A stretch of 46,602 nucleotides of DNA, taken from the UHGV virus genome UHGV-0186543; one strand, 5' to 3'. The DNA comes from a virus. A program made the position numbers and the translations under genes. This document shows positions 10,793 through 14,238 of this stretch, in pieces; the first letter of the stretch is position 1, and every line of letters begins with the position of its first letter. The notes under the pieces are model-generated. The model was not told the DNA's origin, made no database searches, and saw only the letters and a program-made list of their open reading frames with translations.

Positions 10793-11017
10793 ATGCTGCG
10801 ATGGCAACCGGGAGCAACTCTGCTCTCCGCATTTGATATCAAAATTGGCCGACTGTCGGCCAGCGTCAGGAAACAGGCTGTGACCGAGTCTGATATTGCC
10901 CGTGCCTGCAAGGCGGCAGATGACGCAATAAGCTACATAATGAGGAAAGACCATGAGAAGCGATCACGACATAATCACCAGAGAAGAAATGGTCGAGCTG
11001 ACGGGAAGCCCACTTAA
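10793..11017 (+). CDS. hypothetical small protein (start set at ATG 10793 rather than the TTG at 10763)
   Basis: ATG preceded by CGGAGGA SD; overlaps the following ORF by about 65 nt, so one of the two may be spurious. Confidence 0.3.
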   Translation: MLRWQPGATLLSAFDIKIGRLSASVRKQAVTESDIARACKAADDAISYIMRKDHEKRSRHNHQRRNGRADGKPT

Positions 11018-11216
11018 ATCAAAGCAATGTGAGGCTCTTCGCCGGGCTGGAATTTTCTTCATGGAAAGGGCTGACGGGCACCCAAAAACAACCTGGGGCC
11101 ATTTCATGAACCCAATAAAATTTCGCAATTTACAGGAGGTGACGACGCGAAAAGATGATGAACCTGATTTTGGAGCAATATTTAATGGCCGGAAAGAGAA
11201 AGAACCCAGCAGATAA
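10953..11216 (+). CDS. excisionase-like small DNA-binding protein (DUF4224-like)
   Basis: 87-aa ORF immediately upstream of integrase; motif EEMVELTGSPLKSKQCEALRRAGIFF resembles DUF4224 proteins; preceded by TAATGAGGAAAGACC element. Confidence 0.5.
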   Translation: MRSDHDIITREEMVELTGSPLKSKQCEALRRAGIFFMERADGHPKTTWGHFMNPIKFRNLQEVTTRKDDEPDFGAIFNGRKEKEPSR

Positions 11217-12201
11217 CTGGATGCCGCCTCGTGTTTACCAGGGCAAAGCGGCCTACGAATTCAGGAATAAAGATAACAAAGCGATACGCCTGTGCGCATT
11301 GGATGCGCCACGATCAGCCGTATGGCTGGCATATGAAAAAGCGGTCGGTGACGAAAAAGAAAGAAATACTTTTCAGGCGCTCGCGGAACAATTCATGACC
11401 TCCCCTGATTTTATGGATTTGGCAGTCGAAACCAGGAAAGACTACACAAAATATTCCGGAAAAGTTCTGCCTGTCTTCGGGAAGATCGACCCGGATAAAA
11501 TCAAACCTGAACATATTCGGCGCTATATGGATCAACGCGGTTTATCAAGCCGAACTCAGGCAAACAGGGAAAAAAGCTTTATGTCCAGGGTATTCCGTTG
11601 GGGTTATGAACGAGGTTATGTCCAGAGGAATCCTTGTCAGGGAGTTAAGCAGTTTAAAGAGACAGCACGCGAACGTTATATTACGGATGAAGAATATCAG
11701 GCCGTTTATGAAGTATCTCCTGATGTTGTTCGCGTGGCAATGGAGATTGCCTACTTATGCGTGGCCAGACAGAGTGATGTACTTTCATTGCAGAAAGACC
11801 AGCTGTTCGATTCCGGGATCTACATTCGTCAGGGAAAAACCGGCGTTAAGCAAATCAAAGCCTGGTCGCCTCGTCTGCAGAAAGCGATAGCTCTGGCTCG
11901 TTCTCTGCCATTAAAACCGGGAATCAGTAGCCTGTTTGTGATTCATCAAACTACCGGAGGCAAGTACACCCGTGATGGTTTTAACTCTCGTTGGCGTGAT
12001 GTCAAAGCGGCAGCACAGGAAAAATATCCTCATCTGCAAATAGACTTCACATTTCATGATCTGAAAGCAAAAGGTATCTCTGATCTGGAAGGCAGCCTGG
12101 AAGAGAAGCAAGCAATTTCCGGGCATAAGAACCCACGACAGACAGCAGCATATGACCGAAAAGTTAAAGTAGTGCCCGTAGTTGGTGGCCAGAGAAAATG
12201 A
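11155..12201 (+). CDS. int: tyrosine site-specific integrase (lambda Int family)
   Basis: 348-aa ORF with C-terminal catalytic signature (HDLKAKG ... SGHKNPRQTAAYDR); ends 130 nt from the tRNA-derived att core; start may be later than 11155. Confidence 0.9.
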   Translation: MMNLILEQYLMAGKRKNPADNWMPPRVYQGKAAYEFRNKDNKAIRLCALDAPRSAVWLAYEKAVGDEKERNTFQALAEQFMTSPDFMDLAVETRKDYTKYSGKVLPVFGKIDPDKIKPEHIRRYMDQRGLSSRTQANREKSFMSRVFRWGYERGYVQRNPCQGVKQFKETARERYITDEEYQAVYEVSPDVVRVAMEIAYLCVARQSDVLSLQKDQLFDSGIYIRQGKTGVKQIKAWSPRLQKAIALARSLPLKPGISSLFVIHQTTGGKYTRDGFNSRWRDVKAAAQEKYPHLQIDFTFHDLKAKGISDLEGSLEEKQAISGHKNPRQTAAYDRKVKVVPVVGGQRK

Positions 12202-12262
12202 ATGATGATGCGTCCAGAGAAAAATCATCTTCGGACGCATCTTCGGAAATGAAAAAGAAGAT

Positions 12263-12290
12263 ACAAAAAAACCACCCGAAGGTGGTTTCA
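12263..12290 (-). terminator. putative terminator between att core and int (strongest on minus strand)
   Basis: hairpin ACCACCC-GAA-GGTGGT flanked by A-run on plus strand (U-run on minus). Confidence 0.45.
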
Positions 12291-12331
12291 CGACACTGCT
12301 TATTGCTTTGATTTTATTCTTATCTTTCCCA

Positions 12332-12387
12332 TGGTACCCGGAGCGGGACTTGAACCCGCACAGCGCGAACGCCGAGGGATTTTAAAT
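12332..12387 (-). other. attP core: 3' 56 nt of a tRNA-Leu(UAA) gene (leuZ-type), not a complete tRNA
   Basis: reverse complement reads ATTTAAAATCCCTCGGCGTTCGCGCTGTGCGGGTTCAAGTCCCGCTCCGGGTACCA, matching from anticodon loop to CCA of enterobacterial tRNA-Leu(UAA) as recalled; upstream tRNA half is absent and replaced by AT-rich phage DNA. Confidence 0.75.
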
Positions 12388-12608
12388 TGTTCGTTTTGTG
12401 CAATAAATTCAAATGATTATGGTAAATTATCCGGACATAATGGTGCGTGTGAATATCAAATAATCATATAGTTATGACACGTCTTACTCATCATCTTCTG
12501 AAGGTTTTTGGCAAAAAATGGTGATGTTTTGCGCCTTGATGTGACCAAACAGTCAGGAGCAAAGTGAGGTAAAGGGGTATGAGAAAAACTCACATACCCC
12601 AACACAAA

Positions 12609-13028
12609 TTAAAACGCAGTTGGGTGAATGCCATATTCACCGTTTGATCCATACCCTATGCGATACATCAAAGTACGATCTGTTGTCACCTTGCCCGCCT
12701 GCTCACTCATACCACCGCCACATACCCCTTTAGGCCACGCGCTGAAGACATGATCACCAATCGTTGGGTATACAACGACTTTCTGAGCTGTACCTAAATC
12801 TGCCACCTCTTTACCATCAACATAAACACGGGAAAAGCACGCGCTTCCAAAGAACCCCGAGTCACGCTTGATGATCACCTCTCCCGTACCGTCTCGTTTT
12901 TCGAGTAACACGGTACTGATAATTTGTTTTTCAGGAACAGGAGTGGCTTGTTCATTTGAGACAGGTTTTGTAGCACAACCGACAAGAGCAAGCATAATCC
13001 CACAGGCAAGAGCATTTTTAACGACCAT
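12609..13028 (-). CDS. lipoprotein moron near attP
   Basis: 139-aa ORF with signal peptide and lipobox (LALVGC); SD GGGAG upstream; sits between tail module and att site, the usual position of accessory genes. Confidence 0.55.
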   Translation of the reverse strand: MVVKNALACGIMLALVGCATKPVSNEQATPVPEKQIISTVLLEKRDGTGEVIIKRDSGFFGSACFSRVYVDGKEVADLGTAQKVVVYPTIGDHVFSAWPKGVCGGGMSEQAGKVTTDRTLMYRIGYGSNGEYGIHPTAF

Positions 13029-13194
13029 GTTTGAAAACTCCCAATATTAAAAAATGTCAGCATCTAACGATAACAACGTTCAGCACCAGAGACTCTTCGT
13101 TCTCCGGCTTACGCCTAAAAATATCGCAGGAGCCGTTTGCAGTCGACAGTCGTTAATACTAAATTCATACCCGCCACCGGCTCGCCGAGCCAAT

Positions 13195-14238
13195 TTACTC
13201 CAGAGACAGCCGAACCGAAAAGCCGTTTTCAGCAAGCGTCAGGCTCAGCGTGTTGATAGTCCAGTCCCGGTCCTCCTCGGTCCCGAATCCTTGAGTTGTG
13301 ACTTTGCATTCTGCTGTCAGCGACACTAAATCGAGCGTCGCTGGCGTCGTGTACGTCATAGAGAACTCTTTTTTAGCTGCACCGCCCTTAAGCCCTGGTG
13401 CAGCTTCTTTCGCTGCGTCGAGCGACGGCTCCACTGCTGGCCACTCGATTACAGGATCGCCGCCACTGCCTGTACGCAATTCTTTAATCTGCCCTGTTGC
13501 CGTATCGTGGTATTTGATCAGATACGTCGGCTCCGGATTTTCGCCACCGCCGCCACTATCACCGCTTTGTCCATTTCTCGAATAGCCCCAGCTGGAGTTA
13601 TCACGACGAGTTAGCGTGTAGTGCTGGAGCGGAGCACCGCTAACTGATTCGCCCGCGCCGCGCGGCAGAAATATCCAGTACCCTCCTGCGGGTTTGCTCA
13701 CCGCATCGAATCGTGTTGCTAGTCTCGACATCAGGTGCATATCTGACTCACCGACTTGATCGAGCTGCGTGATAATGTTGTCTGCAAACCGCTTTGATAC
13801 GCGAGGTTTTAGCCCGTTATCGCTCGCTATTGTTGCAACGATATTGCTGACAGTGACGTCGCTCCAGGAGCGAGTTTTTTTGCTCTGAACTGTCGGAGAG
13901 CCTTTTGATGCGTTCATCGGAGCTGCTTTTGCTGTGAAATCAACTACCCGGGGTTCACCGCCACTGCTCGCACCATCAACGATGTATACACCCTTATCAA
14001 TTATCTGATTACCGAAACCGAGCCCAATACTGATTTTTACTCCGCGGGCCGGAATTTTCAGAGTTTCAGAAACGATTGCTACGCGTAATTCGTCTGTCTG
14101 TTTACTCGAACCACCATAATCTGTGAGCGTGATATTGATCAAACCTTTTCTTATTTTATCCGTGATGTTTTCATTATCAGCAGATATATAAAAATTGGGC
14201 TTCCATGCTTCCACGCCAGTATTTACGTAATCACTCAT
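13195..14238 (-). CDS. P2 gpD-like tail protein (late control D family)
   Basis: 347-aa ORF at the distal end of a P2-ordered tail gene block (FI, FII, E, T, U, X, D). Confidence 0.55.
   Translation of the reverse strand: MSDYVNTGVEAWKPNFYISADNENITDKIRKGLINITLTDYGGSSKQTDELRVAIVSETLKIPARGVKISIGLGFGNQIIDKGVYIVDGASSGGEPRVVDFTAKAAPMNASKGSPTVQSKKTRSWSDVTVSNIVATIASDNGLKPRVSKRFADNIITQLDQVGESDMHLMSRLATRFDAVSKPAGGYWIFLPRGAGESVSGAPLQHYTLTRRDNSSWGYSRNGQSGDSGGGGENPEPTYLIKYHDTATGQIKELRTGSGGDPVIEWPAVEPSLDAAKEAAPGLKGGAAKKEFSMTYTTPATLDLVSLTAECKVTTQGFGTEEDRDWTINTLSLTLAENGFSVRLSLE

Follow-up and report, generated by a model that had tools for sequence, protein, structure and literature searches.

The region from position 12226 to 12501 of the window, that is, of the whole 46,602-bp stretch of virus DNA analyzed here, is very probably the attP of a temperate E. 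coli phage that integrates into the tRNA gene leuZ, and with the same high confidence the window can be read as one circularly permuted genome of this phage. The head and lysis genes of this phage are lambda-like, and its tail is of the contractile, P2-like type. The nucleotide sequence of the minus strand at 12332-12387 was compared to that of E. coli K-12 and it is an exact copy of the last 56 nt of leuZ, which codes for a tRNA-Leu(UAA). ARAGORN places the anticodon taa at position 35 of the 87-nt leuZ gene; the fragment therefore begins at gene position 32, the final base of the 5′ strand of the anticodon stem. It includes this base, the anticodon loop (12380-12386, with the anticodon at 12384-12382 on the minus strand), which is proposed below as the strand-exchange or overlap region, the variable arm, the T arm, the 3′ strand of the acceptor stem and the CCA end, located at 12332 and pointing to int. 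The fragment constitutes the right part of a larger block. The 125 consecutive bp between 12263 and 12387 are identical to K-12 and correspond to leuZ positions 32-87 followed by a 69-nt trailer, a length of uninterrupted identity that rules out a chance match. The left part of the block, 12263-12331 on the minus strand, is the 69-bp copy of the leuZ 3′ trailer and contains the whole 67-nt 3′ETS-leuZ as well as the terminator hairpin, all of it at 100% identity to K-12. These 125 bp thus extend from inside the tRNA to its 3′ end and beyond, are identical to the chromosomal attB, and restore the gene on integration.

A complete tRNA-Leu gene with a full cloverleaf was not found in the window. 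ARAGORN detected no tRNA gene in the 46,602 bp, and the first 31 nt of leuZ share no word of at least 12 nt with either strand of the window. A search of Rfam at a permissive threshold across 11900-12800 produced chance-level matches only, none of them to a tRNA or a 3′ETS family. The sequence-only reading had stated that only the 3′ 56 nt of a tRNA-Leu(UAA) gene are present, and the exact leuZ match, the lack of an ARAGORN call and the absence of 5′ words bear this out; the length, orientation and isotype that it gave for the fragment were all accurate. It had also put the CCA end toward int, which ends at 12201, and the anticodon side against AT-rich DNA, a lipoprotein gene and the tail genes, and both placements agree with what was found (221 bp of 36.7% GC content, then the lipoprotein gene and the tail module). 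The extent of the host identity had to be corrected. While the 56-nt fragment stood, the 69 bp adjoining it on the int side are host trailer rather than phage-specific DNA, and the block is 125 bp long. A full-length tRNA-Leu or host genes flanking the fragment, either of which had been named as fatal to the interpretation, were looked for and neither was found in the window.

The left side of the block is occupied by the recombination genes. An excisionase gene, coding for an 87-amino acid recombination directionality factor of the DUF4224 family, is located at 10953-11216 on the plus strand (Pfam PF13986, E = 1.1e-14; PHROG 1266 'excisionase', E = 9e-35). The open reading frame at 11155-12201, also on the plus strand, codes for a tyrosine integrase, as indicated by matches to Pfam PF00589 and PF22022, to PHROG 1, and to lambda Int in the PDB, so that a tyrosine recombinase gene lies directly adjacent to the site. 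Translation probably starts at the ATG at 11185, which results in a protein of 338 amino acids as in the prophage annotation; the homologous gene in the prophages of E. coli ETEC1738 and Z0117EC0036 is a RefSeq CDS of 1017 nt. The Int amino acid sequence shares 64% identity with those of the integrases of phages mEp390 and ZF40, both of which adjoin a leuZ fragment, and its best relative of solved structure, as judged by sequence, is lambda Int (E about 1e-8). In the phmmer alignment with lambda Int (1p7d), HDLK aligns with HELR, with a Lys where the second catalytic Arg stands; this Lys of the Int family occupies the position of lambda Arg311. The motif, FHDLKAKG, is found at about residues 299-306, and HDLKAKG is also present in the Int proteins of mEp390 and ZF40. 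Since a Lys takes the place of the second catalytic Arg, activity should not be assumed from motifs alone. The high frequency of lysogens argues that this integrase family works.

On the right side, the putative AT-rich P′ arm (12388-12608) extends from the core to the lipoprotein gene. The GC content of its first 113 bp is 31.9%, and that of the whole window is 47.7%. The lipoprotein gene (12609-13028, minus strand) codes for 139 amino acids with the lipobox LVGC (PHROG 890 'lipoprotein', E = 4e-52) and is the gene closest to attP on the tail side. A hairpin at 12574-12600 (inverted repeat I4) lies just past its stop codon. The tail module follows to the right of this gene, where the region 13195-14238 has a sub-threshold Pfam match to the GPD baseplate hub. 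The prophage homologues of the tail genes are annotated as late control protein, tail protein X, tail tube and tail sheath, and the head genes of the prophages as gpW, portal, S49 peptidase and FI, all lambda-like. With int, xis, replication, lysis, head and tail genes all there, the phage looks intact. Another inverted repeat, 17 nt with 82% complementarity and a 7-nt loop, is located right behind the int stop codon at 12204-12244 and overlaps the tandem arm-type repeats described below; it has no T-run and is therefore not a typical terminator. A scan for sigma-70 promoters and terminators across 11900-13400 returned counts at or below chance, with the leuZ terminator as the only credible element.

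The integrated state of the phage was found in E. coli genomes. The two junctions predicted from the window attP and the K-12 attB were constructed as sequences and used to search 5426 complete E. coli genomes. The junction int–core–leuZ 5′ part–cysT is present in 429 of these genomes, with 100% identity over 574 bp in Z0117EC0036, and the junction yecA–core–tail side in 433. The attP-type junction, searched as at least 80% of the window region 12150-12650 at one place, was found in none of the 5426. The maps of ETEC1738 and Z0117EC0036 show the same order, uvrC–pgsA–glyW–cysT–leuZ (complete)–int–xis–replication–Q–lysis–terminase–head–tail–lipoprotein–leuZ fragment–yecA–tyrP. Both attL and attR are then present in the lysogens, with the full tRNA gene on one side and the fragment on the other. 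In a six-way alignment of attP, attB and four prophage junctions, every junction has a phage half and a host half, with the switch inside the 125-bp block. The window itself does not show the end of an integrated prophage: the core is flanked by int to the left and by the lipoprotein and tail genes to the right, with neither yecA nor cysT/glyW beside it. It had been anticipated that an integrated prophage would have a complete tRNA gene next to int, that the fragment would reveal the chromosomal target, and that attL and attR might be recovered at leuZ-type loci. ETEC1738, Z0117EC0036 and the genomes that carry the int-side junction agree with the first of these, both prophages and the two groups of junction-bearing genomes identify the target as leuZ, and the search recovered both attachment sites.

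Other elements also use this locus. The 125-bp leuZ core occurs in about 7,100 copies in 5,425 E. coli genomes, up to four per genome. The copies outnumber the genomes by ~1,680, which would mean that leuZ is occupied by an element of some kind in about 30% of E. coli genomes. Among the genomes with such an element, only about 430 have this integrase. Genomic studies of STEC list leuZ as a prophage site (PMC8767318). In the ETEC1738 sequence (L002), PGAP calls a 105-nt 'tRNA-OTHER' at 47826-47930, on the yecA side, equivalent to 12332-12436 of the window. It consists of the 56-nt leuZ fragment and 49 nt of phage arm and is not called by ARAGORN. The far end of its phage-arm portion, GTCCGGA, resembles the 5′ acceptor strand of leuZ, GCCCGGA, and overlaps the inverted arm-type site at +43 described below.

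The two ends of the window are contiguous. The last 700 bp joined to the first 700 bp are found in one piece in 438 E. coli genomes, and the base-level alignment to Z0117EC0036 (L003) is gap-free across the join, in agreement with the earlier proposal that the ends meet in a circular map. The ends have no terminal overlap. When the window is rotated to the start of the core, it is collinear end to end with the ETEC1738 and Z0117EC0036 prophages, with mosaic divergence. The region ~37990-45130, which has no match of at least 300 bp in either of the two compared prophages, was interpreted as accessory DNA that has been replaced. The final segment, 46453-46602, continues into position 1, in the intergenic region that separates an LprI-family gene from an ORF6N gene. 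The window is then exactly one genome unit, complete and circularly permuted, with its opening point between these two genes. Given the lambda-like head genes, the ends of the virion DNA would be expected near the terminase genes and not at the window ends.

Several features of the opening point and of the accessory region are worth describing. The opening is flanked by a gene at 33-869 on the minus strand, coding for an ORF6N-domain protein with weak matches to PADLOC PDC-S05, and by a gene at 45534-46457 on the plus strand, coding for a 307-amino acid protein with an LprI lysozyme-inhibitor domain. About 86 bp at the join (46520-46602 plus 1-3) recur with 92% identity at 18780-18865 of L003; this second copy lies elsewhere, in accessory DNA of the prophage of Z0117EC0036, beside an ImmA/IrrE-associated gene pair. 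The ~86-bp repeat may be the boundary of a recombination module. Within the stretch unmatched in the two prophages, a plus-strand gene at 42221-43072 codes for a 283-amino acid protein whose match to the anti-phage defense protein PD-T4-3 covers almost the full length (PADLOC PDLC04031, E = 6.9e-138) and which includes a GIY-YIG nuclease domain (Pfam PF22945). Directly 3′ of it, the plus-strand gene at 43153-44388 codes for 411 amino acids with a C-terminal HNH_2 endonuclease domain and a weak PADLOC 'HNH' match.

The sequence-only reading had offered a free, circular or excised phage genome, or else the junction of a tandem prophage, as the origin of the window. The circular unit was confirmed and the tandem option was not, and for the free or excised state, which is reached by inference, there is an explanation that fits equally well. 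The source could have been a lysogen in which the assembly graph closed the prophage into a loop through its 125-bp flanking direct repeat, with no physical excision. Lysogens do hold two exact copies of the 125-bp core (at 1850 and 45506 in L003), and such a loop would account for a window that is exactly one unit, has an arbitrary opening point and lacks terminal overlap. It would also account for the lack of further attP-form copies. A pattern that demanded both the int-side and the tail-side junctions found none in IMG/VR, JGI metagenomes or GTDB genomes, and none was found at the megablast level among INPHARED phages or in PLSDB, so that the free form rests on this window. On the other hand, the spontaneous induction of a functional prophage or the sequencing of a lysate yields the same contig, and the phage looks intact; the sequence is compatible with both origins, and we consider the graph loop unlikely and physical excision the more probable. 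The junction is the true attP sequence under excision and graph loop alike. Two kinds of candidates that came up in the search for other copies were rejected. The 'plasmid' matches in PLSDB are mislabelled chromosomal leuZ loci, and 'Escherichia phage 520873' is a prophage excerpt that begins in yecA.

Two other explanations have far less in their favor. The window could have been cut from a head-to-tail array of prophages at leuZ with a regenerated attP-type junction, in which case the local sequence would match what is seen. However, no attP-type junction exists in the complete E. coli genomes, about 430 of which are lysogens, and the ends of the window abut exactly, which would need a cut of precisely one unit from the array. 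A double prophage is, for these reasons, highly improbable. It is scarcely credible that the tRNA fragment is a relic of an old integration or of an imprecise excision, with no present role in recombination. The 69 bp of host trailer past the tRNA could resemble transduced host DNA, but on the anticodon side the block ends at one common base in four phages, of which mEp390 and ZF40 have integrases 64% identical to that of the window, phage-specific repeats surround it at conserved offsets, and hundreds of lysogens show exactly the predicted junctions. The reading of the region as the functional attP of a leuZ phage is the one followed below.

To locate the point of crossover within the block, the attP sequences of the window and of mEp390, Fostie and ZF40 can be considered together with attB. 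In this five-way alignment all attPs stop matching attB at the same base, immediately after GGGATTTTAAAT, and the neighboring stretch is invariant. Toward the tRNA 3′ end and the trailer the attPs diverge. A shared boundary with divergence beyond it is the pattern expected if the strands are exchanged at the anticodon side of the block, whose remaining length would have no role other than to restore the gene. One lysogen adds information. ETEC1738 has a T-to-C change in the trailer at a distance of 69 bp from the boundary, on its left, which is present in the int-side copy of the core only. This is consistent with a crossover to the right of the SNP, within 12319-12387, as far as one SNP in one lysogen can define it. 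In SA186 and Z0117EC0036 both copies of the core are identical and uninformative on this matter. Lysogens of the mEp390 type, which would permit mapping with the T-stem variants, were absent from the E. coli set, where the best match was 84.7%. Judging from these comparisons, the most likely place for strand exchange is the right-hand end of the 125-bp block, within the anticodon loop or directly beside it.

The sequences at both sides of the core include repeats with the arrangement of arm-type sites. There are exactly three copies of the 10-mer CATCTTCKGA in the window where 0.15 would be expected, and none of 100 shuffled sequences reached three. All three copies are around the core, at -161, -149 and +105 from the anticodon-side boundary. 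Two tandem copies of CATCTTCGGA at 12226-12235 and 12238-12247, on the plus strand, are candidate arm-type Int-binding sites of the P arm (-161 and -149). In the P′ arm there is a direct copy, CATCTTCTGA, at 12492-12501 (+105), and a degenerate inverted copy that conserves 7 of 10 positions at 12430-12439 (+43). Similar arrangements surround the core in the other phages. The repeat of mEp390 is AATGGCGAA, found at -157, -146, -139, +42 (inverted) and +106; that of Fostie is TATTATGAA, at -160, -147 and +42 (inverted, with one mismatch); and that of ZF40 is ATATTAGGAA, at -161, -149, +42 (inverted) and +104 (one mismatch). At the sequence level, repeats of the arm type therefore flank the core in all four attPs, with offsets that are kept and repeat sequences that differ. 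A geometry that is conserved while the sequence is phage-specific points to integrase arm-type sites, and the short direct repeats that flank the core at set distances are probably bound by the N-terminal domain of Int. No exact site for the IHF consensus WATCAANNNNTTR is present in the att region.

A recombination pathway can be proposed in which Int (11185-12201), probably attached to arm and core sites at once like lambda Int, would exchange strands between attP and the chromosomal leuZ, in the anticodon loop or directly beside it. Integration would join the 5′ 31 nt of the chromosomal leuZ to the 56 nt, trailer and terminator supplied by the phage. The phage copy would in this way replace the 3′ half of the host tRNA gene, the 3′ETS-leuZ sponge and the terminator, and the glyW-cysT-leuZ operon, including the sponge, would stay complete beside int. 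The displaced 125 bp of host DNA would become the tRNA fragment beside yecA at the tail end of the prophage. In excision, the DUF4224 excisionase would aid Int, the integration reaction would be reversed and the junction seen in the window would be regenerated.

The trailer carried by the phage coincides with a regulatory RNA of the host. K-12 annotates this interval as a 67-nt small regulatory RNA, 3′ETS-leuZ (b4759), which is described as a sponge for the sRNAs RyhB and RybB (Lalaouna et al. 2015 as cited in PMC13501541), and its entire 67 nt are found in the phage block at 100% identity. The terminator scan located the hairpin of the glyW-cysT-leuZ operon terminator at 12289-12268 on the minus strand. 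While the K-12 3′ETS-leuZ is part of this operon, the copy in the phage is outside of it and follows a truncated tRNA, and the sole promoter-like match upstream of it, at 12453-12426 on the minus strand, is no better than chance. Lysogens have two copies of 3′ETS-leuZ, the phage-derived one in the native operon and the host-derived one downstream of the phage lipoprotein gene and the truncated tRNA. The phage-borne 3′ETS-leuZ could do more than passively repair the locus if the second copy, or that of the replicating phage, were transcribed from promoters of the phage and processed, which would raise the dosage of the sponge and damp RyhB and RybB. We regard this as quite improbable. If it were true, the integration of a leuZ phage whose trailer is diverged, as in mEp390 and Fostie, would exchange the sponge allele of the host, and a side question is whether prophages at leuZ alter sRNA buffering. 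In the literature searched, where co-occurrences were judged by title and abstract, no report was found that ties 3′ETS-leuZ to prophage att sites.

The free-phage genomes of the lambdoid phage mEp390, the Escherichia phage Fostie and the Pectobacterium phage ZF40 also have int followed by a leuZ 3′ fragment. In mEp390 (JQ182729), a 121-bp GenBank feature, 'putative prophage insertion site (attP)', lies over the homologous block. This phage and the window share the xis–int–attP layout, the orientation of the leuZ fragment, with its CCA end toward int, and the anticodon-side boundary. However, the block is 88.6% identical, the trailer is diverged, the arm repeat differs from CATCTTCKGA, and the rest of the phage is unrelated, with a siphovirus-type tail fiber neighborhood where the window has a contractile tail module. 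The T-stem changes of mEp390 and Fostie are paired, that is, compensatory, so that these phages mirror the leuZ of another host. ZF40 and Fostie share with the window the leuZ 3′ fragment, its boundary, the tandem repeats and the inverted copy at +42, although the repeat sequences differ in both, and in ZF40 the tRNA part is all that is common at the megablast level and the trailer is Pectobacterium-like. An attP architecture that is kept while the sequences of the arm sites diverge could help in the design of orthogonal integration vectors. Three characteristics seem undescribed in the literature searched: the presence of the whole 3′ETS-leuZ in the block of a leuZ phage, the arm geometry common to the four phages, and the Lys of Int. 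The value of the present results is mainly one of annotation, in that they fix the integration site at leuZ, show a complete circularly permuted genome, and supply the precise coordinates of the att elements, together with candidate arm sites, of an integrase family found in about 8% of complete E. coli genomes.

Lambda Int is a heterobivalent tyrosine integrase with arm-type and core-type sites. The attP of the window, which spans about 275 bp, is comparable to that of lambda in its span, in the repeats on both arms and in the adjoining xis. In contrast, lambda has a 15-bp core and an intergenic attB, whereas the window has a 125-bp identity block inside a tRNA gene and no IHF consensus was found in its att region. 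An anticodon-loop class of tRNA-gene integration sites was reportedly defined by Williams in 2002. As in that class, the block of the window extends from the anticodon loop through the tRNA 3′ end and beyond, and attB has a symmetric anticodon stem, AGGGA/TCCCT, around the 7-nt loop. The position of the boundary suggests that the attP of the window belongs to this anticodon-loop class. In its general features it is a textbook tRNA-gene attP, a new but ordinary instance, and the annotated attP of mEp390 is the closest to it.
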